Of a stretch of 64,000 nucleotides of DNA, positions 15,681 through 45,352 are shown in pieces. This DNA comes from Oligoflexales bacterium (GTDB lineage Bacteria; Myxococcota_A; UBA9042; DTJE01), in NCBI GenBank assembly GCA_012840965.1, contig DUVQ01000098.1:2059-66058 (forward strand), in the 5' to 3' direction. A model generated the notes under the pieces. It was not told the origin of the DNA. It was given only the letters and a program-made list of their open reading frames with translations, and did no database searches. The position numbers were made by a program, and so were the translations under genes. Numbering within the stretch: position 1 is the first letter of the stretch; every line of letters begins with the position of its first letter.

Positions 15681-16940
15681 GTGATTAAGATGCGATGGTT
15701 TTTTAGCTTTGGACTAGCACTGTTTTTGGCTGCGAGTGTTGGCTGTGGTGAAGCAGAACAAAAAACAGACGATGGGGCACCAGAACGTGACGCAGCCGCT
15801 GACGACAATGCCCAACCGCCAGACGCAGATGCCCCAGATGTTGATGACGCTGAGGATTCAGTGGATATAGAAGAGGTTGATGTCTGTGTTCCGAACTGTG
15901 ACGGTCGTCTATGTGGCGATGATGGCTGTGGCAACAGCTGTGGGCAGTGCGCGACTGGCCAGGAATGCGAGGATGGCACGTGCGTTAAACAGTGTCTGAA
16001 ACTAAATCGCACTGAAGTTACAGCCAGTTGGAAGCCCATCCATGGGCCAGATGACCCAAGAGGTGAATTCTACTATCAGGAAGTGGAGGAAAACGGGGAC
16101 GTGGTTAGTGCCCTGCGCTTGGAAATTCGCCAGTTTCACCCCTTCAATGGACCTCAAGGACCTGGGGAATATGACATTGCCTTCAAAGAGGAGAATGGTT
16201 TTGGCGCCTGTACTATCTGTGTCAGCTTTTTTGATAGTTGTGGCCAGACTGGCTGTAACAGGCGGCTGCTTGCAACCTCGGGAACACTTGTGATTGAAAG
16301 CCTTGATGGAGCTGATGCCTCGTTTAAGGCCACGCTCAAGGACTTGGTACTTAAGGAAGTTTCCATCGACAAGGATTACAACACTTATTACCTGAAGAAT
16401 AAGGAAACGGCTTGCATTGATGAATACGTGATCGAATCTGAAGAGGTCAGGCTGGCTGTACCACAACCTCAGTGTATGGCCGAGGGTACTGGCATATTCC
16501 TGGACGACAATATCGCAGATTTCGAGCTTACCAACTGCCTTGATGAAAAGCGCAATCTGCATGAAATGTGCAATCAAACCAAGGCCATGTGGTTGGTGCT
16601 GGGTGCAATGTGGTGCCCATACTGCAGCCAGTATATACCCATGTTTGATGAGATTAGGGCGAACAACGCTGATTCCATCGAATTGTGGGTTGTGATGGGT
16701 GAAAACAAAAATCGCCTAGCACCAACGGCTGCTGACTGCCTTGAATATGCGCAAAAAGTCGGAGTTGACCCCTCAAGAGTCTTTTATGATCACCACTATG
16801 AAACGGTCACGGAATATATTTATCCGTACGTGTTTCAGGGGATCCCATTTAGCATCATCCTGGACGGCAGTAACATGGCTTACATATGGTCTGATGGCAC
16901 TTATGGGTCCCTTAATTCTGCTTTAGGTGGGCTGCTGTAA
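15681..16940 (+). CDS. Cys-rich lipoprotein with C-terminal thioredoxin-fold (TlpA/redoxin-like) domain
   Basis: Lipobox LAASVGC, an acidic linker, the module CVPNCDGRLCGDDGCGNSCGQCATGQECEDGTC, and C-terminal ...WLVLGAMWCPYCSQYIPMFDE...GIPFSIILDG (CxxC plus cis-Pro region). Confidence 0.7.
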   Translation: MIKMRWFFSFGLALFLAASVGCGEAEQKTDDGAPERDAAADDNAQPPDADAPDVDDAEDSVDIEEVDVCVPNCDGRLCGDDGCGNSCGQCATGQECEDGTCVKQCLKLNRTEVTASWKPIHGPDDPRGEFYYQEVEENGDVVSALRLEIRQFHPFNGPQGPGEYDIAFKEENGFGACTICVSFFDSCGQTGCNRRLLATSGTLVIESLDGADASFKATLKDLVLKEVSIDKDYNTYYLKNKETACIDEYVIESEEVRLAVPQPQCMAEGTGIFLDDNIADFELTNCLDEKRNLHEMCNQTKAMWLVLGAMWCPYCSQYIPMFDEIRANNADSIELWVVMGENKNRLAPTAADCLEYAQKVGVDPSRVFYDHHYETVTEYIYPYVFQGIPFSIILDGSNMAYIWSDGTYGSLNSALGGLL

Positions 16941-31045: not shown

Positions 31046-31720
31046 GTGGCTGAGAGTCAGGCAATTTTATTAGACAGGGTGCCTTATCGCGACAGGGACT
31101 TGATTCTGACCTTGCTGACCAAGGATTTCGGAGTAATTCACGCTATTGCCAGGGGCGCCAGAGGATCAACAAGGCGTTTTGCCGCAGCCCTTGATTTGTT
31201 CGTGGTCTCTACAGTTTCCTGGACGCAAGGTAAGTCTTCCTTGGTGACTCTGACCCAAGCCTCAGTCATAAAGCAGTTTCCAGGTATATTTGAATCTCTG
31301 CACAGGTTGGAAGTTGGTCAAATGGCCACGGTGCTGGTCAGAGACCTAACTTTTGAAGCGCCAGCTGGAGAGGCTATGTTTTTACATCTGTTGCAGACAT
31401 ATACAGCATTAGAAATTGCCGACGATAGTGATGCCCTTAATCACTTACTGCTCTTGGCGGTAAATCTGCTGGATGAGATAGGCCACTTTGGGCGCAATTG
31501 CCCAAGGTGTGGGGCACAACTAGAGCCTCCTGGACTGCTTTTAATGGCTGATGGGACTGTTTTGTGTCGCACCTGTAGTTCATTTGCGGTTGGTGTCCCT
31601 GCAGACCAACTGTTTACCGACGATAAATCAAGTTTTGACCCGTCACACACCGCAAATTTGATAGCCACTTTGATGTCGGGGACTCTTGGAAGACCCTATC
31701 AACTACGAGGCCTTAGCTAA
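31046..31720 (+). CDS. recO: DNA repair protein RecO
   Basis: GTG-start product MAESQAILLDRVPYRDRDLILTLLTKDFGVIHAIARGAR... parallels the E. coli RecO N-terminus. C-terminal zinc-finger-like CPRCG...CRTC. Confidence 0.75.
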   Translation: MAESQAILLDRVPYRDRDLILTLLTKDFGVIHAIARGARGSTRRFAAALDLFVVSTVSWTQGKSSLVTLTQASVIKQFPGIFESLHRLEVGQMATVLVRDLTFEAPAGEAMFLHLLQTYTALEIADDSDALNHLLLLAVNLLDEIGHFGRNCPRCGAQLEPPGLLLMADGTVLCRTCSSFAVGVPADQLFTDDKSSFDPSHTANLIATLMSGTLGRPYQLRGLS

Positions 31721-33214
31721 TCTGCGGACCCAAATAATCAGGGTTGCAAACAAAAACAACACGAAGGGGCTAGCCATAGTGGGCCCGCTATTACAGCCAG
31801 CAGATTTTTTGGCTTTGACACAATCCTCTTCATCTGTCTGACCGTCGCAGTCGTTGTCAATGCCGTCGTCACAGATTTCAGGTTCTGGAGTCCCAGGTTT
31901 TGCCTCACAAATCACAGATGAGCCGTCATCAGAACACCTGGTTTTTCCAAAGGCCCTACAGGCACCTTCGCCTATTGAGCATTCAACTCCAACTTCGAAG
32001 CCTTCATCGACTTGGCCATCACAGTCATTGTCTATACCGTCACAGATCTCTTCAGAAGGTTCAATTACTTGGGCTAGGCAAATCTGACCAAGCTCCTTGT
32101 CACATGCGAAAACCCCGATTTGAGCGCATGCCCCAAGCCCTTCCACGCATGCTTCGCCAACGTTAAATCCCTCGTCAGTTTCACCGTCACAGTCATTATC
32201 GATACCATCACAGATCTCTTCAGAATCTTTGGCGTCAGGCCCGTCAGGCATTGTTGAGCACGTAGCGCCAGTTCCATCCACCTTACACGTTACAACGCCT
32301 TTTCCGCAGTTACCTAGCGAAACGCAGCCGGCACCAAGGGCGAGCCCCTCAAAGGTGTGGTTATCGTCGACAATGCCGTTACAGTCGTTATCGATCCCAT
32401 CACAGGTGACCTCAACCTCTTCGTAGCCTTCAGGATAAGGACAAATCCAACCGGCAGCCCCTTGGCAAGTTGGGACAGTGCCGGCGCAGATCCCCTTGTC
32501 AAGGCATGAGATGGTTGGTTCAACATCTTCATCGGTCAGCCCATTGCAATTGTCGTCAATACCGTTGCAATACTCCGGCATGCCTGGCCCAATTTTGGGG
32601 TTGTAATCGTCGCAATCGCCTTCGTCTTCCGCCCAACCATCGTTGTCATTGTCGCAGTAATTATTGGCCTCACCTGGAGTGCCAAAATTCCTGTCTTCTC
32701 CGTAAGTCTTGCGAGCAAGGCACCAACCCTTGGGAATTCCATCGATGTATGGCTCAAGCGAGATTGACTTTCCCACTTCCACTGAAATCAAATCCGGCCC
32801 ATAGGAAACTAAATCAACAACAGTGCCATCCAGCTTTAGCTGAATCTCATCAGATTCGCGGCCCAGCAAGATGTCGTCTTCATACACATAATCAAGCTTA
32901 ATACCGCCATTTTGCTTGAAATCGTCCAGCTGTCCCAGGACGACTATGCCACCTGGCTCCAGTATCAGTTCTTTTCTGGCGCTGATGGGGTGAAACCCAC
33001 CAGATGCAGTTGTCAACACCATGCCCTGCAGGTTTACAGGTTCTTCGTTAAAGTTCGAAAGCTCAATCCACTGGCCGGCTTCGGGTGATATCCCATCTGG
33101 CAGGACCATGAATTCAGTAATAACAACACGTGGCCAGGGGCTCGGGTCAGGCGACTTAGCCCACCCCAAAAGAGGCAATAAAAGGACTGCGATGGTAAAA
33201 ATTAACCGCGTCAT
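31703..33214 (-). CDS. secreted protein: lamin-tail domain + MopE-type CDGIDNDCDG repeats + MYXO-CTERM-like tail
   Basis: Signal peptide. LTD ...ITEFMVLPDG...GQWIELSNF.... At least four copies of C(D)DGIDNDC(D/N)G...DE. C-terminus ...GCNSGPTMASPFVLFLFATLIIWVRRLAKAS. Confidence 0.7.
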   Translation of the reverse strand: MTRLIFTIAVLLLPLLGWAKSPDPSPWPRVVITEFMVLPDGISPEAGQWIELSNFNEEPVNLQGMVLTTASGGFHPISARKELILEPGGIVVLGQLDDFKQNGGIKLDYVYEDDILLGRESDEIQLKLDGTVVDLVSYGPDLISVEVGKSISLEPYIDGIPKGWCLARKTYGEDRNFGTPGEANNYCDNDNDGWAEDEGDCDDYNPKIGPGMPEYCNGIDDNCNGLTDEDVEPTISCLDKGICAGTVPTCQGAAGWICPYPEGYEEVEVTCDGIDNDCNGIVDDNHTFEGLALGAGCVSLGNCGKGVVTCKVDGTGATCSTMPDGPDAKDSEEICDGIDNDCDGETDEGFNVGEACVEGLGACAQIGVFACDKELGQICLAQVIEPSEEICDGIDNDCDGQVDEGFEVGVECSIGEGACRAFGKTRCSDDGSSVICEAKPGTPEPEICDDGIDNDCDGQTDEEDCVKAKKSAGCNSGPTMASPFVLFLFATLIIWVRRLAKAS

Positions 33215-33410
33215 CCGCTGATCCTACAGGATTAGTCTTAAAATGAGCAAGGATTTGCATTGGGTCATCAACTACGGCTGGCTTAAGCACGATCTACGGC
33301 CGACTCGCGATTATGACTGTGAATTTGGGCCCACTCAGATTGACATATCTTGGCTTGTAACTTAGGATTCCGCCGCCTTTCGGAAGTTTGGCCGCTTTTT
33401 GGGACGCCAA

Positions 33411-35132
33411 GTGAAGCTGTCTTATAAAAAATTAATATCTACCGGATTAAATCTGGTTACTGCACTGGCCATTTTGGGTTTTTCACCAAAAGTCATGGCT
33501 GAATCACAGGCCCCAAGCTGGGGGGATACCGACATCAGGATTTTGCCCCTCGTGACCTTGGAAAATCATGGCTCATTCAGGTTGAGGTTTAACCTGTTTT
33601 CCAACATGGACCTGGGGCTTGGTGCCGATCCTACGTTGAATCCCACATGTGCGCCCGCAACATCTCCTGGGGTTTCAGCTCAAGGTTCGTTAGGTAACGT
33701 CAAGGAAACAGCCACTTTTGCCAATATGCGCCTGCGCTACGAGCCAACTCTGCGTATAGGCGAGATTGTGGCGGTCCACGCCACAATGGACTTCTTAGAC
33801 AACGTTATTCTTGGAGACGCCCCAGTCAGACATAGTGTTGCCGCCCCAATGAGCGTGTATGCCAAAAGCGCCTTTCCACCAGCAGCCGGTTTTTCTGGCT
33901 TGCGTGATTCAGTCCGCATCAAGGCGGCTTGGGCTGAGTTTACCCTCTTTGATTTGATCATTTTAAGAGGTGGGCGGATCCCCTATAAGTTTGGTTTGGG
34001 GATGGTTCGAAGCGATGGCCGTTCGCCAGATTCCGACTTTGGGGACTATGTTGATGGCGCTTTTGGAAAAATCAAGGTCGGCATTACATACCTGTTCGCA
34101 GGCATGGAATTTCCAGGCGAAGGGGTTGTTTCTGACGGCCCATACGGCTATTTCACGCGACCTTATGACTTAGACCAGTCGGACGATATCACTCGTTGGG
34201 TGCTTGGGGTTGATTCAACTCCTGAAACTAGGGCCGAAAAGGCAAAGGCGGCAAAGGCCCTCGAAGAAGGCAAACCTGTAGTTGACTGGGGCATGTACAA
34301 CGCAATCACCCAGCAAAAGATATCCTCAGAGCGAGTTGTTGGAGCAACAGGTGGCCAGGCCAACGAGCCTGACTTGATGGATGTCGGATACGATGACTAC
34401 ACCTTGGTGCCTAGAGATGCCTTTTTTTGGACCCCTAGTCTGTGGACCAGGGTTTTGTATCGACCAAAGTCTGATCTTACGTTAAGGGTGGAGTTTGAGA
34501 CGGCCATGACCTATGGATGGGTTACCCATGTTCAAAGTAACCGGGATGACCCCAGGTCTAAAAAAAGCTTCCTTTCCGCCGGTGCCGCACTGGAAGTCGT
34601 GTTGGACGTTGGATTTAACAAAATCGAACTGCTCAGTGGTGTGGCCAGTGGTGGAAACACCCTTGGCTCTTGGGGTATTTTGGACCGCCACACGATTTCC
34701 ACACCAAATCAGCCATGTTACTCCCTGGACCAGTCCGAGGTTTTCAGGACTCGGAAAGTACATCATTTCGTCTTCAACCGGGACTATCGTCTTGACTCCA
34801 TTTTATTCAGGGAAGTCATAGGCTCGGTGACCAACGCCTTTTATTTCAAGCCGGCTTATGACCGCGTTTTCTTTAAGCAAAATGGCTGGGAAGTTGGCGG
34901 TGGTGCCAGTCTGTTGATGGCATTTGCAACTATCCCAGAAGGCACCCCTGGTAACAGCAGGACCTTAGGATTTGAGCCAGCCCTTGACCTGTGGGCAAAG
35001 TGGGGACAAAACTTTACCCTTAGGGCCGATGGGGCGTTGCTTGTTCCGATGGATGGCCTCGACCGAGCGTCCACAGGGCAAGACGCCTCTTTGGCGGGTG
35101 CGTTACGAATCAGAGCTCAGGTTAGTTTCTAA
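33411..35132 (+). CDS. putative outer-membrane beta-barrel protein
   Basis: GTG start gives signal peptide MKLSYKKLISTGLNLVTALAILGFSPKVMA. Alternating amphipathic strands and a terminal aromatic (...RAQVSF). Confidence 0.5.
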   Translation: MKLSYKKLISTGLNLVTALAILGFSPKVMAESQAPSWGDTDIRILPLVTLENHGSFRLRFNLFSNMDLGLGADPTLNPTCAPATSPGVSAQGSLGNVKETATFANMRLRYEPTLRIGEIVAVHATMDFLDNVILGDAPVRHSVAAPMSVYAKSAFPPAAGFSGLRDSVRIKAAWAEFTLFDLIILRGGRIPYKFGLGMVRSDGRSPDSDFGDYVDGAFGKIKVGITYLFAGMEFPGEGVVSDGPYGYFTRPYDLDQSDDITRWVLGVDSTPETRAEKAKAAKALEEGKPVVDWGMYNAITQQKISSERVVGATGGQANEPDLMDVGYDDYTLVPRDAFFWTPSLWTRVLYRPKSDLTLRVEFETAMTYGWVTHVQSNRDDPRSKKSFLSAGAALEVVLDVGFNKIELLSGVASGGNTLGSWGILDRHTISTPNQPCYSLDQSEVFRTRKVHHFVFNRDYRLDSILFREVIGSVTNAFYFKPAYDRVFFKQNGWEVGGGASLLMAFATIPEGTPGNSRTLGFEPALDLWAKWGQNFTLRADGALLVPMDGLDRASTGQDASLAGALRIRAQVSF

Positions 35133-36475
35133 TAGGACTTCGTAGCTTCATCACCACGAATCAAGGTAGATTTTAAGCGGGCGGTAGCCTTCGCCACTGA
35201 TACCGAGAAGTCGCTCATTAGATCGGCGTCCAGGCTTGGTCCCTTGACCTGCAAAAGGGTGCGGGGATGGACAAAGCTACCGTTCTTGGCAACAGCGAAA
35301 TGAAGGTGCGGGCCAGTTGAGCGGCCGGTGGAGCCAACTTCTCCGATAAAGGAGCGGCGGCTAACTTCTGAGCCAACCTTCAGACCCTTGGCAAACTTGG
35401 ACAGGTGTGCGTAGTAGCTTTGGAACCCGTCTTGGTGCTGGATAACAACTAAGTTCCCATTGGCACCTTTTTTGCCCGCGAAAATGACCTTACCGTCGCC
35501 GATAGCGTGGACGGGCGTCCCAATAGGTGCGGCGTAATCAATCGCTCGGTGGGGCGTATAGTTCTTTAAAATGGGGTGCTTACGACGATTAGTGTAGTTT
35601 GAAGACACCCGAGTGTACTTAAGCGGGCTTCGCAAGAACAAGCGTTCAACGCTGTTTCCACTTTGATCGTAGTACGAAACCTTGCCCATATCGTCTTGGT
35701 GGGGGAATGCGCTACCGGAGCCAAGTTTGCCTTCGTAGATGACACCGTGAACCAAACCGTACCGCAAGAAAGAGCCGCCAAGGCTTTCACGGTCGACAAT
35801 CATACGGATTACGTCACCCTTACGGACATCAGAATGGAAATCGACTTGGCCACCAAGCAAGTCAGAAATAATCGGTACCAATGAGACATCCGCGCCACAG
35901 CGAGAAATGCTGTCAAAAAGGGTGCCGCTCATCATGCAGGCCACTTCGACGGTTTCTTTGTCGGTTGGGATTTGTTTATAGGTGACGTTCCAAACGCCGT
36001 CTTCAGGGGCTATTTCAAGGTAGCGGATTCTATCAAGCGGGAACCTAAGATATGCAAGCTCGCCATCAGGAAGGACGCCAGCGATAAACTTTTGTCCAGC
36101 CTTCAAAGTGCGCATGTTTACTTCTGAGGCCAAAGCAGCCAAGGCATCAGCGGAGGCCGAGGGTTGCACCCCAATTCTAGCCAAAGCCTTGGCGGAGGTG
36201 TCCCCCCTGGCAAGGGTAGTCTCAACAGCTTCAGGATGCATAGTCTGTGGAGACCTTTGGGCTACAAGCGCCTCAAGTTTACCTTCTGGAAGCACTTCTA
36301 CCGGCTTAGCCAAGCGCTGATCCAGGGAAGGGGTCTCAACTGGGCCTGATTTAAAGAATACAAGATAGTTCACAACCACTATTGCAAGCACAAACAAGGC
36401 GCCGCCGAGAAGCCCAGAAGTGGGCTTTCTAGTCGGTTGTGAACCCCTTAAATACAAGGGCTTTCCTAATGGCAC
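35129..36475 (-). CDS. M23-family metallopeptidase with N-terminal TM anchor
   Basis: ...YAAPIGTPVHAIGDGKVIFAG...GNLVVIQHQDGFQSYYAHL...GSTGRSTGPHLHF.... Start placed at GTG (36475) preceded by GGAGG. The track ORF extended to 36667. Confidence 0.75.
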   Translation of the reverse strand: MPLGKPLYLRGSQPTRKPTSGLLGGALFVLAIVVVNYLVFFKSGPVETPSLDQRLAKPVEVLPEGKLEALVAQRSPQTMHPEAVETTLARGDTSAKALARIGVQPSASADALAALASEVNMRTLKAGQKFIAGVLPDGELAYLRFPLDRIRYLEIAPEDGVWNVTYKQIPTDKETVEVACMMSGTLFDSISRCGADVSLVPIISDLLGGQVDFHSDVRKGDVIRMIVDRESLGGSFLRYGLVHGVIYEGKLGSGSAFPHQDDMGKVSYYDQSGNSVERLFLRSPLKYTRVSSNYTNRRKHPILKNYTPHRAIDYAAPIGTPVHAIGDGKVIFAGKKGANGNLVVIQHQDGFQSYYAHLSKFAKGLKVGSEVSRRSFIGEVGSTGRSTGPHLHFAVAKNGSFVHPRTLLQVKGPSLDADLMSDFSVSVAKATARLKSTLIRGDEATKSY

Positions 36476-36716
36476 GTATCGCCTCCATTTTGGGTGCTCG
36501 CTTTGGGGACGGACACCCAGGAAGGGCCAAAACCTAGCATCGGTCAAGTGAAATGTCAATAGGTAAAGTCGTATAGTGAACGCAACCAAACGTATGACTG
36601 GCAAGGAATTTTTATTGCAAGTGCAAAATATGGGATAAAAGTACTTGAAACTCAACAATGGTTTCAATTAGAATTCCAGCGGCCTTTTGGCAGATCACTC
36701 CAGAGGAGATTCAAAA

Positions 36717-38429
36717 ATGCGTCTAAATGGTTTGTTAATCGCTTGCTTGTTTTTGGCAGGCTCGTTTGCCGCATGCGGCGGTGTCGACGTTGGAAATGCT
36801 TGTCTTGGCAACAACGACTGTGTTCCCGGGGAAGTATGTCGAGACTTGCAATGCACTGAGGTCAAGTGTTTGGGTGCTGGCGATTGTAATAATGCCAACG
36901 ATGAAATCTGCGTCCCAGGTGCCCTAGTAGGCAAGGACCCAGAGTTCAGATTCTGCACAGCCGCCCAGTGTAAGACAGATGGCTCTCTCAATTGTCCAGA
37001 AGGCTCAACTTGCAAGAACGGCTGGTGCGAGAGGGACCCGGGGACTGACATTGACGCAGTCGAGCCGGACAACGGTGACCGTCCAGATGATGGGGATACT
37101 GACCCGGGAGAAGAGCCTGACGTACCTCCAGTGGCCGAGGGTGGCGACTGTAAGTCCTGTGCAGGTGACGGCGATTGCAACGAAGGGTTCAAGTGCCTGC
37201 CTCTGGGTTCTGACGGCAAATACTGCCTGCGTCCTTGTGAAGATCACAAGGATTGTTTGTCCGGCTACCAGTGCTATCAGGCCTCAAGCGTTCTCAAGGC
37301 TTGCGTTCCAAACACTTACAACTGTGTAGCATGCGCCTTTGACGCGCCATGTGGCGAAGGCATGTGTTGCGACTTCACCAGTGGTGAGTGCAAGGAATGC
37401 CGTCAGGAGTGTGATCCATGCACCTATGACTACGACTGCGCTGGCAACATGCGCTGCTTCAAGAAAGCCGGTAATCCAACAGGAGCCTGTGTTGAGGAGT
37501 GTGAGAAGGACAATTGTTCTGACCCCGCCAATTTCACATGCCAACCCAACCACCTAGGTGTTAGGGTTTGCCAACCAAACGATGACAGTTGTGGCGGTTG
37601 CCCAGCTGGCACCTTCCCGTTGCCCGATGGAACTGGTTGCGTTGAGTGTCTAAACACCAGCCACTGCACAGGGGGCGCTTCTTGCGATTTAACAACTAAC
37701 ACATGTGTTGTCGGCGCGTGTGATGATAGGACTCCACACACTTGCAGCGATGGTGAATGTCATCAGTGCTGTGAGGATGCCCACTGTGCCGGCATTGGAA
37801 CTGGTGTGTGTAAGCCAACCTTCGAGTGTGAAGGGGCTGAGCTATGCGGCGGTACCTGTGCGCACCCGTATCCTATTTGTGCAATCGTTGACGGGACTGA
37901 AATGTGCGTCCAGTGCAAAACAGACGCTGACTGCCATAAGGTCGACGCGACATGCTATTGTACTCGTGAGCCCCTGTATGCGTGCAACTTCCCCGACCAA
38001 TCGATGTGTATGACCGAGGGTGGGGCTTGCATGCAAACCTGCAAAACCGACAATGACTGTCCGCCAAGCAGCGATGGTGGGGAGCTGTACTGCGATACTG
38101 TTGGTGAAATTTGCTATGATTCCAGTGGAAAATGTGATGGTATGTATTCTTGCTGCCCTGCGGGTGAGGTTTGCTTCGACCTTATGAGCCTTCTAATGGG
38201 TGGTGGCATGGGTGGTATGCCTGGCATGCCTGAAGAGATGGGTGTGTTATTTGGCCACTGTTCCTGTAATAAGGGGACCTGCCTGGGTGGTGGTACTTGT
38301 ACCCCCACTGCTATGGCATGTTTGATGCCAATGATTGGTGACATCATTTGCCCCGGTGGCTCTTTGGCTCCGAACGTGCCCCAAAATATCTGCTTTGACA
38401 TAATGGGCCTTTTGGGCGGCATTATCTAA
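36717..38429 (+). CDS. Cys-rich lipoprotein, paralog A (570 aa, about 80 Cys)
   Basis: ATG at 36717 is preceded by GGAGAT. Lipoprotein signal MRLNGLLIACLFLAGSFAAC. Dense ordered Cys pattern. C-terminal Met/Gly-rich tail. Confidence 0.75.
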   Translation: MRLNGLLIACLFLAGSFAACGGVDVGNACLGNNDCVPGEVCRDLQCTEVKCLGAGDCNNANDEICVPGALVGKDPEFRFCTAAQCKTDGSLNCPEGSTCKNGWCERDPGTDIDAVEPDNGDRPDDGDTDPGEEPDVPPVAEGGDCKSCAGDGDCNEGFKCLPLGSDGKYCLRPCEDHKDCLSGYQCYQASSVLKACVPNTYNCVACAFDAPCGEGMCCDFTSGECKECRQECDPCTYDYDCAGNMRCFKKAGNPTGACVEECEKDNCSDPANFTCQPNHLGVRVCQPNDDSCGGCPAGTFPLPDGTGCVECLNTSHCTGGASCDLTTNTCVVGACDDRTPHTCSDGECHQCCEDAHCAGIGTGVCKPTFECEGAELCGGTCAHPYPICAIVDGTEMCVQCKTDADCHKVDATCYCTREPLYACNFPDQSMCMTEGGACMQTCKTDNDCPPSSDGGELYCDTVGEICYDSSGKCDGMYSCCPAGEVCFDLMSLLMGGGMGGMPGMPEEMGVLFGHCSCNKGTCLGGGTCTPTAMACLMPMIGDIICPGGSLAPNVPQNICFDIMGLLGGII

Positions 38430-38661
38430 TACCTGACTCCCTCCTTTCATAAGACATCGCATAATTTCATTGAATGGGTAATTCTTGATGAGCTCGGTGC
38501 CAAGGTCTATTTGGCAGTGAGGGCCTTTTAGACAATCAACTGGATGCTGCCAAGCTTGATCTTTAAGATAAGGAACAAGTAGTTGAAAGATAAATGTGTT
38601 TTTAGGTAGAATTTACAATTCCAGTGGCCCTTTGGCAGTCTACTCCAAAGGAGATTCAAAA

Positions 38662-39789
38662 ATGCGTCGACGTGGCTTGTTAATCGTTTGCCTGTTCATG
38701 GCGGGCTCATTTGCAGCGTGCGGTGTTGACAAGAAAAACCAAGAAGTTCCCGTTGACACGGTTGAAACTGGCGATGGTTTCAGCTGTGATCCTGGGAAGG
38801 AGCCGGGGGAAGATTTGGAAGAAGAGCCCGGGGAAGCGCCTGGAGAGGATCCGGGACAAGAGCCTGAACAAGACCCGGGACAAGAGGCCAGCGAGCCGGC
38901 AAAGGTGCTGGAACGTGGTGACTGCAAATCATGTACAGGCGATGATGACTGCAATGAAGGCTTTAAGTGCCTATCTTTGGCCTCTGAAGACAAATACTGC
39001 CTGCGTCCTTGTGAAGAGCACAAGGATTGTTTGCCTGGCTACCAGTGCTTTCAGGCCTCAAGCGTTCTCAAGGCTTGTGTTCCAAACACTTACAACTGCG
39101 TACCATGCGCCTTTGATGCGCCATGTGACGAAGGCATGTGTTGCGACTTTGGCTCCGGCCAGTGTTGGGAATGTCGCCAGCAGTGTGATCGATGCATCTA
39201 TGACAGCAACTGTGCCGGCGACATGCGGTGCTTTAAAAAGGCTGGTAGTCCGGTTGGTGTTTGCGTTGAAGAATGCGAGAAGCAGGAATGTTCTGACACC
39301 ACCAATTTTACGTGCAGCCCCAGTTTCAACAATATTCAGGTGTGCCAGCCAAACGACGTCTATTGTGGCGGTTGCCCAGATGGTACCTTTCCGTTGCCTG
39401 ATGGAACTGGCTGCGTTGAGTGTCTTGACAGCAGCCATTGTGATGACGGTATTTGTGATTTGATTACTTATACTTGTGACTATTCCGAGTGTCCTTCCCA
39501 CCTACATATGTGCGATGACGGTCAATGTCACACGTGTTGTGAAGACGCTCATTGCGTGTGTGAGGGTGGTGGTACTGGCATTTGTAGGTCGAATTTCGAA
39601 TGTGAATGCTGCTCCACATGCGATGATAGTGACTGTAGAGACCCGTATCCTGTGTGCGCTAAGGTTGATGGGGTTGAGATGTGTGTTCAGTGCAAAGAGG
39701 ACGCTGACTGCCATCGCATCAATGAAGCCTGCATTTGTACCCCTGTGTACGCATGTGAGTTTTCCGATCATACGGCATGCACAAAATAG
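38662..39789 (+). CDS. Cys-rich lipoprotein, paralog B (375 aa)
   Basis: ATG at 38662 has the same leader and RBS as paralog A. Signal MRRRGLLIVCLFMAGSFAAC, acidic PGE/PGQ repeat, and a core about 330 aa long that is colinear with A. Confidence 0.75.
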   Translation: MRRRGLLIVCLFMAGSFAACGVDKKNQEVPVDTVETGDGFSCDPGKEPGEDLEEEPGEAPGEDPGQEPEQDPGQEASEPAKVLERGDCKSCTGDDDCNEGFKCLSLASEDKYCLRPCEEHKDCLPGYQCFQASSVLKACVPNTYNCVPCAFDAPCDEGMCCDFGSGQCWECRQQCDRCIYDSNCAGDMRCFKKAGSPVGVCVEECEKQECSDTTNFTCSPSFNNIQVCQPNDVYCGGCPDGTFPLPDGTGCVECLDSSHCDDGICDLITYTCDYSECPSHLHMCDDGQCHTCCEDAHCVCEGGGTGICRSNFECECCSTCDDSDCRDPYPVCAKVDGVEMCVQCKEDADCHRINEACICTPVYACEFSDHTACTK

Positions 39790-39856
39790 GCGACTCTTTT
39801 TAAAAAAAACAGCTGATTTGTGCTAAAACTCGCCTAGGCTTTTGGAGCGTGTAGTC

Positions 39857-42292
39857 ATGACCTCGATTGAAAAACTTGGCGCCTTTTATCTTGGTCGCCA
39901 TTGGGACCAGCTAAATCGCACAACTTTGGACGTGCCTGTAATGCTCGATTCCAGGGATCTGCTGACGCATGCCGTGTGTCTTGGTATGACTGGCAGTGGG
40001 AAAACTGGGCTTGGTGTAGCAATGCTGGAAGAGGCCGCGATTGACCAAATCCCGGCCATTGTTATTGACCCAAAAGGAGATATGACCAATCTGGCGTTGA
40101 CGTTTCCTGGGCTTGCGGGCCAGGATTTTGAACCCTGGATTGACGCCCAAGTTGCAGCCCAAAAGGGGGTGGATGTGCCTGTGCTGGCACAGCAGACGGC
40201 GCAGATGTGGGCAAATGGGATACAGGAGTGGGGCCAGGATGCGGCAAGGATCCAAAGGTTTAAAGATGCCGCGAGGGTGGAGATATACACCCCAGGAAGC
40301 AGTACTGCGCCTTTGTCCATCTTGAAGGCCTTTTCACCACCTAGCAGCCAAGTGATGGCAGAAAGCGATCTCTATGCGGACACGCTCTCGGGCACTGTTT
40401 CAGCGCTGCTTACCTTGATTGGCGTGGACCCAGACCCAGCAAAAAGCAAAGAGCTGGTTTTGATAAGCAGCATCCTTGACAGGCTATGGCGAAATGGCGA
40501 GGGCACAGACCTAGCTGGGCTGATTACGCTGGTACAAAACCCGCCCATGACTCAGATTGGGGTGTTTAATCTCGATATGTTTTATCCGGCGCCAGAACGG
40601 ATGAAGCTTGCGATGGCGTTAAATAATCTTTTGGCGTCGCCAGACTTTTCGGCTTGGATTCAAGGGCCGCCTTTGGATATCAATTCGCTGCTTTACACGC
40701 CGGAAGGAAAGCCAAAACTGTCTGTGATTTCGATTTCTCATCTGGATGACCAATCCAGGATGTTCGTGGTTTCTTTGGTTCTAAACAGGTTGTTGACTTG
40801 GGTAAGGGCTCAAAATGGGACATCCAGCTTGAGGGCCTTGTTTTACATGGACGAGATCTTTGGCTTTTTACCCCCAGTTGCCCAACCGCCTTCCAAAAAG
40901 CCGCTGTTGACCTTGTTGAAACAGGCTCGTGCCTTTGGGTTGGGACTGGTTTTATGTACCCAGAACCCTGCGGATATTGATTACAAGGCCTTGTCCAATA
41001 TTGGAATTTGGATGATTGGCCGCTTGCAGACCGAGCAAGACAGGAACCGGTTGCTTGATGGTTTGAAAGAAAACCCGGCCTTGGGTGATAGGGCACAGCT
41101 TGGGGGGTTGATAAGTGCCTTGGATAAAAGGGCATTTTTAATGCACAACGTCCATGATGAGCGACCTTACATTTTCAAGACCCGGTGGTGCTTGTCTTAT
41201 CTTGCAGGACCACTAAGCAGGGAGCAGCTTCGGAGATTGGTTACTACTGCCGAGGTCGTGCAGCCGGTAGAAGGGCCTAAGGCTGAAGCGGGTGTTGGGC
41301 TGGTGGGTGGTCAGGTACAGGCTGGGATCGGGGCGGGAATGCCGCCTGTGTTACCAGCTAGCATCTCGCCTGTTTTTTTACCGCCAAACAGTGGGCTGCG
41401 TGCTGACGAACCGGTTGTTTATCGTCCTTCGCTTTTGGCGTTTGGCTCGGTTTACTATGCTGATGCGAGGTATCGCCTTAATTTCGAAGAACAGGTGATG
41501 GCCTTGTTCGACGATGAAGAAAAACCTTTGATGATGGACTGGGAGCAGGCTATCAAAGTCGACTGTGCAGCAAGCGATTTGCGGCCATTTCAGCCTGTTG
41601 ATGGTAAGTTTTTTGTCCCTCCTGCGTGGATGATTAATGACAAGGAATACAAGAATTATGCTTCATCCATGCAAAATTGGCTTTTGCGAAGCAAGCGGTT
41701 GACTTTGTGGCGTAGTCCTTCAACCAAGCTTGTCTCGGCGGCTGGCGAGGCTGAGCAAGATTTTCGCCTTAGGCTGAAACAGGCTGGTCGTGAGGAGCGG
41801 GATTTGAAGCTTGATGCCATCAAAAAGCGTTATGCAACTCGTGTTGAGCGGCTGCAAAACCAGATCCGTCAGGCGGAAGATAAGCTAGAAAAGGAGCATC
41901 TACGGCACAGCAATTTGAAAAAAGAGGCTGCGCTTGCGGCTGGTAGAACGTTGTTTTCAGGGTTGTTTGGTGGTAGGGGGGCAATCAGCAAGGCCTCTAC
42001 GGCCATGCGTAAAAGCCAAAGAAGCGGTGAAAAGGCCAAGGATGTCGAACTGGCTCAACAAAGACTGGCGGACCTTCAACAGCAAGAGCTGGACCTGCAA
42101 GCAGAACTTAGCCAAGAGATTGAAAACCTGCAGGCAGCGCTTGATCCAATGACAGAGGTCTTGGAAGAAATCGAGGTTTTGCCAAAAAAGACAAATATAT
42201 CCCTGCACATGCTTACTTTGTGTTGGCTACCTTACAGCGTGAGTGGACCTGGGATTTTGAAGCCTTTGTGGTCTGCATCGAGAGATCAATGA
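39857..42292 (+). CDS. HerA/FtsK-clade P-loop ATPase (DUF853/YjgR-like) with C-terminal coiled coil
   Basis: Walker A LGMTGSGKTG followed by IVIDPKGDM. Later block ...RAFGLGLVLCTQNPADID...IGRLQTEQD.... No TM. Heptad-rich tail of about 200 aa. Confidence 0.65.
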   Translation: MTSIEKLGAFYLGRHWDQLNRTTLDVPVMLDSRDLLTHAVCLGMTGSGKTGLGVAMLEEAAIDQIPAIVIDPKGDMTNLALTFPGLAGQDFEPWIDAQVAAQKGVDVPVLAQQTAQMWANGIQEWGQDAARIQRFKDAARVEIYTPGSSTAPLSILKAFSPPSSQVMAESDLYADTLSGTVSALLTLIGVDPDPAKSKELVLISSILDRLWRNGEGTDLAGLITLVQNPPMTQIGVFNLDMFYPAPERMKLAMALNNLLASPDFSAWIQGPPLDINSLLYTPEGKPKLSVISISHLDDQSRMFVVSLVLNRLLTWVRAQNGTSSLRALFYMDEIFGFLPPVAQPPSKKPLLTLLKQARAFGLGLVLCTQNPADIDYKALSNIGIWMIGRLQTEQDRNRLLDGLKENPALGDRAQLGGLISALDKRAFLMHNVHDERPYIFKTRWCLSYLAGPLSREQLRRLVTTAEVVQPVEGPKAEAGVGLVGGQVQAGIGAGMPPVLPASISPVFLPPNSGLRADEPVVYRPSLLAFGSVYYADARYRLNFEEQVMALFDDEEKPLMMDWEQAIKVDCAASDLRPFQPVDGKFFVPPAWMINDKEYKNYASSMQNWLLRSKRLTLWRSPSTKLVSAAGEAEQDFRLRLKQAGREERDLKLDAIKKRYATRVERLQNQIRQAEDKLEKEHLRHSNLKKEAALAAGRTLFSGLFGGRGAISKASTAMRKSQRSGEKAKDVELAQQRLADLQQQELDLQAELSQEIENLQAALDPMTEVLEEIEVLPKKTNISLHMLTLCWLPYSVSGPGILKPLWSASRDQ

Positions 42293-44146: not shown

Positions 44147-45352
44147 ATGCGGGTCTTGCGATATTTGGCTGTACTTTCGCTAGTTTTCGCTATTATCGCG
44201 ATGATTGGTTGTGACGATTCTGCCCATCGAGCCCATGTTTTGGGGGGAGTGCCGCTGCCTTCTGATGATGAGCCGGATATCGTGTCAAAGCCTGATGAGG
44301 GCGGCGATACTGATGAGGGTTTTGATGTCGATTCATTGTGCGTGCCGGAGTGTGGGGACAGAGTCTGTGGCCCTGATCCCGTTTGCGGCAAGTCGTGTGG
44401 CACCTGTGATGCTTCCACAACTTGCAATTCTCAAGGCCAGTGTGAGTGTGTGAGAGACTGTACCGGTCGCGTTTGTGGTCCGGACCCTGTTTGTGGCGAG
44501 CCGTGTGGGGCTTGTGATGAAAACTGGGTCTGTGTTCTTAGTGGCAAGTGTATAGCCCCAACAGCCGACTGCAGCAACGGGTGGTGTTTGATTCCGTCAG
44601 GCACCTTTAAGATGGGTTCTTTAGGAGATGATCCTTACCGTGAACTTGATGAGGGGCCTGTTCATTTGGTCACGATTTCCCGCTCTTTTTACATGGCGCA
44701 GACGGAAGTCACTCAGGGCCAGTGGAAGTCCTTGATAGGCAACAATCCTTCTGAACATAGTGCCTGTGGGGATAACTGCCCTCTTGAGAACGTTAATTGG
44801 TATGAAGCCGTTCATTATGCAAATGCGCTTTCTGAGAGGGAAGGTTTTGAAACCTGTTACACGTTGAATGGTTGCAGTGGTACTGTCGGTTCTGGGGAAA
44901 GTAAGAACAATCTCTATCAATGTACGGTCACTTTTAAGGGACTTGGTTGTGCAGGTTATCGTTTACCAACCGAGGCCGAGTGGGAATATGCAGCCCGTGC
45001 TGGTACTTCTGGGCCTAGGTATGGCGAAATTGATGCCACAACTTGGTATTGGAACAACAGTTCAAACACTAGTCATCCGGTGGGTGGAAAGGCGGCAAAT
45101 TCCTGGGGCTTATATGATGTGCTGGGCAATGTATTTGAGTGGGTTTACGACTTTTACAGCGAGGACTACTACAGCACTTGTTCATCCAACTGCACAGATC
45201 CAACCGGACCTGCGACAGGCTTTAACCGGGTAAATCGTAGTGGCGGTTGGGGCAGCGACGAAAGCCGTACACGCGTGGTTTTTCGCAACAACTACTCGCC
45301 TGACGAACGCCGAGTCTATTTGGGTTTTCGTTTGGTGAGGTCCGCGCCCTAG
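44147..45352 (+). CDS. lipoprotein with two Cys-rich CxxCxxRxCGxDxxCGxxCGxC modules and a C-terminal FGE-sulfatase (SUMF1-like) domain
   Basis: Lipobox AMIGC. Modules CVPECGDRVCGPDPVCGKSCGTCD... and CVRDCTGRVCGPDPVCGEPCGACD.... FGE motifs ...HLVTISRSFYMAQTEVTQGQW..., YRLPTEAEWEYAARAG, ...GNVFEWVYD.... Confidence 0.75.
   Translation: MRVLRYLAVLSLVFAIIAMIGCDDSAHRAHVLGGVPLPSDDEPDIVSKPDEGGDTDEGFDVDSLCVPECGDRVCGPDPVCGKSCGTCDASTTCNSQGQCECVRDCTGRVCGPDPVCGEPCGACDENWVCVLSGKCIAPTADCSNGWCLIPSGTFKMGSLGDDPYRELDEGPVHLVTISRSFYMAQTEVTQGQWKSLIGNNPSEHSACGDNCPLENVNWYEAVHYANALSEREGFETCYTLNGCSGTVGSGESKNNLYQCTVTFKGLGCAGYRLPTEAEWEYAARAGTSGPRYGEIDATTWYWNNSSNTSHPVGGKAANSWGLYDVLGNVFEWVYDFYSEDYYSTCSSNCTDPTGPATGFNRVNRSGGWGSDESRTRVVFRNNYSPDERRVYLGFRLVRSAP

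Follow-up and report, generated by a model that had tools for sequence, protein, structure and literature searches.

The closest described counterparts of the proteins discussed here fall into three groups. Proteins of TIGR04201 (Myxo_Cys_RPT), for example the Cys-rich stalk of TraA from Myxococcus xanthus, are exported Myxococcota proteins made of short tandem CxxC...C...C modules; in myxobacterial TraA, cysteine-rich repeats lie between a variable domain and a sorting tag (PMC13184517). Dickkopf/colipase-fold and knottin-like domains, which are eukaryotic signalling or toxin domains, consist of small beta-hairpin modules locked by several disulfides. Hexameric HerA/FtsK translocases (HerA-NurA, the C-domain of DndH/DptH, the defence systems Sir2-HerA and DUF4297-HerA, and Escherichia coli YjgR) have DUF87, Walker A and Walker B, and a TQNP motif in common with the ATPase described below. 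In a 64,000-nucleotide stretch of Oligoflexales bacterium (assembly GCA_012840965.1, contig DUVQ01000098.1, positions 2,059 to 66,058, hereafter the window), two adjacent genes encoding the Cys-rich predicted lipoproteins A and B are followed on the same strand by the gene of a HerA-type ATPase. It is probable that A is the resident member of its family, B is a recent tandem duplicate, and the ATPase is an unrelated neighbour. The features of the locus, in window coordinates, are as follows.

36645..36674, + strand: promoter-like site of A, TTGAAA-18-TAGAAT, 10 of 12 consensus matches
36668..36716, + strand: shared leader of A, comprising the -10 element, the predicted 5' untranslated region (UTR), and the ribosome-binding site (RBS) (CTCCAGAGGAG)
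36717..38429, + strand: lipoprotein A, 570 amino acids (aa), 80 Cys (14.0%), from the list of open reading frames (ORFs)
38583..38612, + strand: promoter-like site of B, TTGAAA-18-TAGAAT
38613..38661, + strand: shared leader of B, a duplicate of the leader of A
38614-38619, + strand: second TACAAT hexamer near B, aligned with the -10 of A
38662..39789, + strand: lipoprotein B, 375 aa, 56 Cys (14.9%), from the ORF list
38818..38886, + strand: DNA tandem repeat of period 24/12, coding for the acidic PGE/PGQ linker of B
39790..39856, + strand: spacer between B and the ATPase gene, 67 nt
39857..42292, + strand: HerA-type P-loop ATPase, 811 aa, ATG at 39857

Duplication of lipoprotein A

The original prediction, made from the sequence alone, described two tandem paralogous genes, and both ORFs are confirmed; the proteins are colinear and 54% identical (BLASTP, E 4e-139). 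Its estimate of about 80 cysteines in A, or about 14% of residues, agrees with the count, and its shared core of about 330 aa is shortened to about 290 aa (A residues 143-431). At the DNA level, the paralogy is directly supported by four direct-repeat blocks with 72-85% identity. One of them, D2 (36668-36783 vs 38613-38728, 82% identical), spans the -10 hexamer, the 5' UTR, the RBS, and the signal peptide. The domains of the two proteins are arranged as follows.

A, residues 1-20: signal peptide and lipobox
A, residues 27-104: N-terminal Cys module
A, residues 105-143: acidic linker
A, residues 144-431: core with 58 Cys
A, residues 432-570: C-terminal domain, Cys-containing, Met/Gly-rich, and hydrophobic
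B: signal peptide and lipobox, acidic PGE/PGQ repeat linker, and core, without the N-terminal module and without the C-terminal domain

The Met/Gly-rich tail of A and the acidic PGE/PGQ repeat of B are both present as described earlier. It had also been suggested that A added its N-terminal module and its tail; orthologs elsewhere carry both, so it is B that lost them.

The sequence preceding each gene was duplicated as well. Identity between the two leaders, described earlier as near-identical over about 45 nt, is 95% over 20 nt, about 87% over 48 nt, and 84% over 50 nt, each counted back from the ATG. The core coding DNA of A and B is 72% identical and its synonymous third positions 61% identical, so that the leader (84% over 50 nt) is the better conserved part. 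A TTGAAA-18-TAGAAT site stands before each copy. The -35 and -10 of A can be aligned with those 5' of the orthologs in loci L011, L001, and L018; the -35, the -10, and the core of the UTR (TGGCA.G..CA.CTCCAGAGGAGA) are also found upstream of the orthologs in L011, L017, and L018. The leader is read here as a conserved promoter and 5' UTR that were probably copied along with the gene, in agreement with the earlier proposal that the duplicated unit brought its own cis-regulatory leader. The leader was also considered as a structured RNA, and this was rejected: nothing in Rfam matches the leaders, single-sequence folds equal those of shuffled sequences (z -0.25 and -0.40), and RNAalifold over the orthologs gives invariant pairs only, among them a CUCC/GGAG hairpin that covers the RBS, and these show no covariation.

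Neighbour-joining groups B with A as its sister, on a longer branch, whether the tree is built from the 5' half, the 3' half, or all of the core. B therefore arose on the spot by duplication of A and did not come from another source. A comparison of two strains gives dN/dS values of 0.22 (A) and 0.30 (B), as compared to 0.07 for the ATPase gene and 0.13 for ribBA. Both lipoprotein genes are therefore functional under moderately relaxed constraint, and the substitution pattern indicates purifying selection on A and B between strains. B is intact in a strain at 98% nucleotide identity. Remnants of the DNA coding for the A tail were found neither downstream of B nor downstream of the ATPase gene.

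The most probable course of events is that a recent tandem duplication of A in this lineage gave rise to B. The duplicated unit would have comprised a sigma-70-type promoter, a 5' UTR with the RBS, the signal peptide, and the Cys core; afterwards, the N-terminal Cys module and the Met/Gly-rich hydrophobic domain at the C-terminus would have disappeared from B, which would also have gained the acidic repeat linker. In this scheme A would be the resident ortholog of a small Myxococcota-restricted family of lipid-anchored, disulfide-rich envelope proteins.

Two variants of B were seen in the databases. Protein P0012 (ENA, 265 aa) corresponds to B frameshifted within the PGE/PGQ tandem repeat and continuing in the +1 ORF 38711-39463; this is due either to an error of assembly or to natural truncation at a repeat that is prone to slippage. 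In the B of the 98%-identity strain (L030 2630-3757, P0001), several of the residues that differ from the window allele (e.g. CGEG, QCKEC, DSDCAG) equal those of A, which suggests that the tandem copies underwent gene conversion or that the window allele carries derived changes.

Distribution and architecture of the lipoprotein family

A word-indexed protein search gave 12 family proteins, and a profile search of 1.84 billion representatives gave 305 clusters at E<=1e-3 and 67 at E<=1e-30. All named genome records of the family are Myxococcota or 'Deltaproteobacteria' metagenome-assembled genomes (MAGs). Long-form orthologs of 563-593 aa are present in many Myxococcota MAGs; they consist of the N-terminal Cys module, the acidic linker, the core, and the Met/Gly-rich hydrophobic C-terminal domain ending in ...LLGGLI. 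The number of Cys after the lipid Cys is 78 in seven of the eight full-length long forms examined, A included, and 80 in the eighth; in B it is 54. Short forms elsewhere (P0004, P0005, P0008) make up a clade separate from B by neighbour-joining, and therefore truncation happened at least twice. The long form is the ancestral one. The family duplicates readily: tandem arrays have three copies in L026 and two in each of L012, L040, and L041, and MAG JARKOL01 has three copies at dispersed sites.

The signal sequences are MRLNGLLIACLFLAGSFAAC in A and MRRRGLLIVCLFMAGSFAAC in B, with the lipobox LAGSFAAC in both. In the alignment of the family, the lipobox Cys is conserved almost without exception, and canonical lipoboxes (IVGC, LSGC) occur in some orthologs. 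With a basic n-region, a hydrophobic h-region, and a lipobox, A and B are predicted, at the level of sequence pattern, to be bacterial lipoproteins, i.e. substrates of signal peptidase II (SPII).

Gene order and the position of the ATPase gene

In the closest lineages the gene order is recO, an LTD/MopE lipoprotein, a TIGR04551 protein, an M23 peptidase (- strand), one long Cys-rich lipoprotein (+), ribBA (-), and a SurA/PpiD-like gene (+). The full order is found in L011 and L018, with an extra 835-aa gene before M23 in L011 and no detected LTD/MopE gene in L018; L017 and L042 show its right-hand part (a single long Cys-rich gene, ribBA (-), and the SurA-like gene). Neither B nor the ATPase gene is present in these four loci. 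The window differs in that B and the ATPase gene stand between A and ribBA, and an FGE-sulfatase-domain gene stands between ribBA and the SurA-like gene. Since the closest lineages have otherwise the same order without B and the ATPase gene, these two genes are lineage-specific additions.

Linkage was examined by tblastn in six ATPase loci of other organisms (the distant L015 and L016, and L013, L014, L028, and L029 with the closest homologs at 57-61% identity) and in 22 distinct Cys-rich loci of other species, 14 of which have at least 3 kb of downstream sequence. No Cys-rich family gene lies near the ATPase gene in any of the six, and no ATPase gene lies near the Cys-rich genes in any of the 22; the tandem arrays in L012, L026, L040, and L041 and the copies of JARKOL01 are likewise not beside an ATPase gene. 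None of the six other ATPase loci shares a neighbour with the window. The trio of A, B, and ATPase occurs only in L007-L010, L030, and L031, where A is 96-100% identical to that of the window, and these six contigs are therefore of the same species. The original prediction had paired an exported Cys-rich family with a translocase-like ATPase as a candidate system and proposed a search for the trio in related genomes. The trio is confined to one species and the ATPase has no conserved linkage to the lipoproteins, which is the outcome that the prediction had itself named as refuting that pairing. From its genomic contexts the ATPase is best regarded as an unrelated stand-alone gene and a chance neighbour, with no three-gene system.

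The 835-aa protein of L011 (5650-8157), located between the TIGR04551 and M23 genes, has no Pfam match; as a displaced copy of the ATPase it was ruled out (E 0.35).

The genes around the lipoprotein genes are envelope-related and include Lgt (in L001), the SurA-like gene, and the TIGR04551 protein. The only neighbour of the lipoprotein family that recurs across lineages is an M23/LytM peptidase gene, which in the window is placed as follows.

35129..36475, - strand: M23/LytM peptidase gene (Csd3-like), divergent from A; Pfam Peptidase_M23 at 1e-31, Csd3_N2; gene call (448 aa) taken over from locus L007

This gene is head-to-head with the long-form gene in the window, L001, L011, L018, L032, and L035, and lies within 2.3 kb of it in L025.

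Cysteine modules and predicted fold

As the original prediction had supposed, neither lipoprotein matches a named domain; scans of A and B with Pfam, NCBIfam, and PADLOC gave nothing above threshold. Membership in TIGR04201 requires a score at or above the curated 25 bits, which is not reached by any family member: P0007 scores best (24.3), A scores 15.7, and B has no match. At E<=1, five of 11 members match this model, with up to seven stretches in one protein. The A and B modules thus appear weakly related to this Myxococcales Cys-rich repeat. In comparison with TIGR04201 proteins and TraA, the A/B family not only falls below the cut-off and lacks the PA14-like variable domain and the MYXO-CTERM tag, but is predicted to be lipid-anchored at the N-terminus, and its long form has a conserved Met/Gly-rich hydrophobic C-terminal domain of its own. 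When A, B, and the long forms were scanned with NCBIfam and Pfam, libraries assumed to contain the MYXO-CTERM model, no MYXO-CTERM tag or variable domain was found; the C-terminus (...CFDIMGLLGGII) has neither a Cys-anchored tag nor a basic tail. An NF058595 'invert_tail' match was discarded as spurious, being located on the signal peptide of P0005. A search of the literature on lipo-invert, YjgR, and Cys-rich Myxococcota lipoproteins found nothing on function.

The module CxxC-x5-C-x5-7-C occurs six times in A and four times in B, where about 0.5 are expected, and none of 2000 shuffles reaches the observed count. The AlphaFold2 model of A consists of small beta-hairpin units. A Foldseek search of this model against the PDB gave nothing at E<=1e-3; at the top of the weak matches are Draxin and Dickkopf domains, knottins, and EGF-like modules. 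The Draxin Cys-rich domain (PDB code: 5z5k_B) is the first match in the fold search (E 0.012) and again with the sequence profile (E 0.014), the latter being the best E-value when the PDB sequences were searched with a profile of the family. Pfam Dickkopf_N matches two family members weakly. Since no match is significant and the model of A is of low confidence, the resemblance to Dickkopf and knottin domains is one of structural class and is not evidence of homology.

The HerA-type ATPase

The ATPase is a member of the HerA/FtsK superfamily and is of the HerA type. It has the Walker A motif GMTGSGKTG and scores 32.1 bits with Pfam DUF87 (cut-off 23.2), and its AlphaFold2 model, which is usable (pLDDT 78, pTM 0.68), matches HerA of Deinococcus, Sulfolobus, and Thermococcus by Foldseek at E 2e-12. 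The earlier assignment to a HerA/FtsK/YjgR (DUF853) clade holds for HerA; with HerA_C (PF05872, formerly DUF853) the score of 21.8 bits lies just under the gathering score of 22, and many homologs have precomputed PF05872 matches. With YjgR itself (PDB code: 11kk_A) the match covers 120 residues at E 9.6e-4, and the ATPase exceeds it in length by about 310 aa. With the NCBIfam equivalogs no score reaches 40 bits, as compared to cut-offs of 600-970 (HerA, CedB, and TraD models), and the PADLOC HerA matches are partial. The 67-bp gap downstream of B is correct for the ATG at 39857, at which the homologs and the identical protein P0013 start (811 aa); the 816 aa given in the original prediction were counted from a TTG at 39842.

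In the protein, an ATPase domain (1-465) is joined by a disordered linker (466-489) to a beta domain and a helical hairpin, whose antiparallel arms are residues 633-704 and 709-760; no membrane-spanning segment is predicted. The hairpin (633-760, about 130 aa) is located inside a C-terminal module of about 320 aa and takes the place of the heptad-rich tail of about 200 aa proposed earlier; its tip bears a hydrophobic patch rich in Gly that is conserved (TLLGAFxGRK). More than 8000 proteins belong to the family, and the best 120 are all full-length (about 800-830 aa) with 45-47% identity. Its alignment is conserved from end to end, tail included, with invariant Walker A, Walker B, and TQNP motifs. 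Source names of the homologs include Acidobacteriota, Planctomycetales, Calditrichota, KSB1, Anaerolineales, and Deferrimicrobiaceae. A search of plasmids gave one weak partial match, in a chromosome-sized record, and the family is essentially absent from them.

As compared to the described HerA/FtsK translocases, the ATPase is about 810 aa in length, and its conserved C-terminal beta domain and long hairpin are not covered by the matched structures. No nuclease or effector partner (NurA, Sir2, DUF4297, or Dnd/Dpt) stands beside the ATPase gene in the window or in the six other loci. Its contexts vary: the neighbours are B and ribBA in the window, and a sulfatase, a PTR2 transporter, histidine kinases, or metabolic genes in the other loci. 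Overall, the ATPase seems to be a translocase-like enzyme that is hexameric and stands alone.

In three of the four closest homologs a sulfatase gene (PF00884) follows directly 3' of the ATPase gene and is itself followed by the PTR2 transporter gene (sulfatase at L013 10442-11770, L028 7393-8769, and L029 10530-11834), and in two of these three loci it overlaps or abuts the ATPase gene. In the window, an FGE-sulfatase-domain lipoprotein gene is found in place of this, 1.9 kb 3' of the ATPase gene and past ribBA; this may be a coincidence.

Other exported proteins of the window

Cys-rich secreted proteins are common in the source genome. Three other exported proteins of the window are moderately Cys-rich, and at 5-7% Cys they leave A and B (14-15%) as clear outliers.

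15690-16940, + strand: exported lipoprotein
31703-33214, - strand: exported protein with LTD and five MopE repeats
44147-45352, + strand: exported FGE-sulfatase-domain lipoprotein with N-terminal CGPDPVCG..CG.C repeats

The product of the gene at 33399-35132 (+ strand, 577 aa) gives a full-length NCBIfam TIGR04551 match (E 6e-82, 276 bits against a cut-off of 300) and has syntenic counterparts in L011 and L018 at 78-79% identity. It is an uncharacterised Myxococcota protein, probably of the envelope.

Function of the lipoproteins and alternative explanations

Localisation, disulfides, and function of A and B are predictions. Following Sec export, A and B would be lipidated at Cys20 and folded oxidatively. 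The product may be an elongated stalk of small beta-hairpin modules (CxxC-x5-C-x5-7-C) that is tethered to a membrane of the envelope and held together by disulfides, about 39 of them in A and about 27 in B. In the long form, the C-terminal hydrophobic Met/Gly-rich domain would provide a second contact surface. As a lipid-anchored, disulfide-knotted stalk, each protein most likely has a structural or ligand-binding role in the envelope.

Several observations weigh against the explanation of a resident lipoprotein, its duplicate, and an unrelated ATPase. The AlphaFold2 model of A is weak (an 11-sequence alignment, pLDDT 59, pTM 0.26), so the stalk and the disulfides are indirect deductions, and among curated families there is no match to fix the function of the lipoproteins. 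Two short forms from other genomes with an intact signal peptide, P0004 and P0005, have an odd number of Cys after the lipid Cys. B and the ATPase gene are only 67 nt apart, and no consensus promoter or terminator was found in this spacer (folding z-score +0.73); co-transcription is therefore possible in this species and, with low probability, a newly acquired functional link. The order of A, B, and ATPase also persists in a strain with 2-3% nucleotide divergence.

Since the head-to-head pair is found in at least six lineages, the 78-Cys long form might serve the M23/LytM peptidase, whose gene diverges from its own, as a dedicated partner in the envelope. This is unlikely. If true, the long form would represent a new kind of scaffold or regulator for peptidoglycan hydrolysis, rich in disulfides, anchored by a lipid, and confined to one clade of Myxococcota; B would then be either a truncated decoy or a copy with a specialised role.

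It is improbable that A and B are periplasmic proteins for the binding or buffering of Cu, Zn, or Cd, with thiolate ligands supplied by the CxxC motifs and a Cu(I) site in the Met/Gly-rich motif (MGGGMGGMPGMP). The eight CxxC motifs of A, the Cys content of 14-15%, and a Met-rich stretch conserved among the long forms are consistent with such a role, as is the neighbouring gene at 31703-33214 with its MopE-type 'putative metal-binding' repeats (PF11617, 1e-28, five copies). However, the Pfam Cu-binding_MopE motif itself (PF11617, the 30-aa CDGxDNDCDG motif) has no match at E<=1 in A, B, or the 11 members, and GGM-type repeats are also known as flexible tails without metal binding. The invariant Cys positions, fixed modular spacing, and even total, the predicted beta-hairpin units, and the weak similarities to disulfide-knotted modules (Draxin/Dickkopf, knottins, TIGR04201) are together the signature of structural disulfides in an oxidising compartment. 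Because the conserved Cys count is even, the spacing is fixed, an export signal is present, and the modules are beta-hairpins, structural disulfides are favoured over metal thiolates.

Still less probable is a role in TraA-type surface recognition or adhesion, or as polymorphic toxin-like surface proteins, with duplication diversifying the specificity. TraA has cysteine-rich repeats (PMC13184517), the family has duplicated repeatedly, and B evolves faster than A. On the other hand, the NCBIfam and Pfam scans contain no PA14-like or variable domain, MYXO-CTERM tag, or toxin domain, the dN/dS of 0.2-0.3 between strains gives no sign of diversifying selection, and several lineages have just one copy of the long form, as a syntenic ortholog.

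Very unlikely, too, is a functional system in which the HerA-like ATPase powers secretion, assembly, or turnover of the Cys-rich lipoproteins: the common strand, the 67-nt gap without a consensus terminator or promoter, and the retention of the trio in six contigs of this species (strains at 96-98% identity included) stand against the absence of linkage at all 22 Cys-rich and six ATPase loci, an ATPase family that occurs, as far as named sources show, in phyla without the lipoprotein family, ordinary Sec/SPII signals on A and B that need no dedicated ATPase, an ATPase without a predicted membrane-spanning segment, and closest ATPase relatives that adjoin a sulfatase and a PTR2 transporter.

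Implications

A candidate novel system is removed by these results, since the lipoprotein genes came to lie beside the ATPase gene by accident, in a single species, and neither uncharacterised family answers an open question. The remaining picture is that of a tandem duplication in a subfamily of Cys-rich repeat lipoproteins that is unannotated and restricted to a clade of Myxococcota, beside a member of a large HerA-like family that is likewise unannotated. The two families are clean targets for annotation or structural work: a lipoprotein restricted to one clade of Myxococcota, with about 39 predicted disulfides and a conserved place beside an M23 peptidase, and a HerA-like family of more than 8000 members of about 810 aa, with a helical-hairpin tail, which is spread over many phyla and has no curated model.

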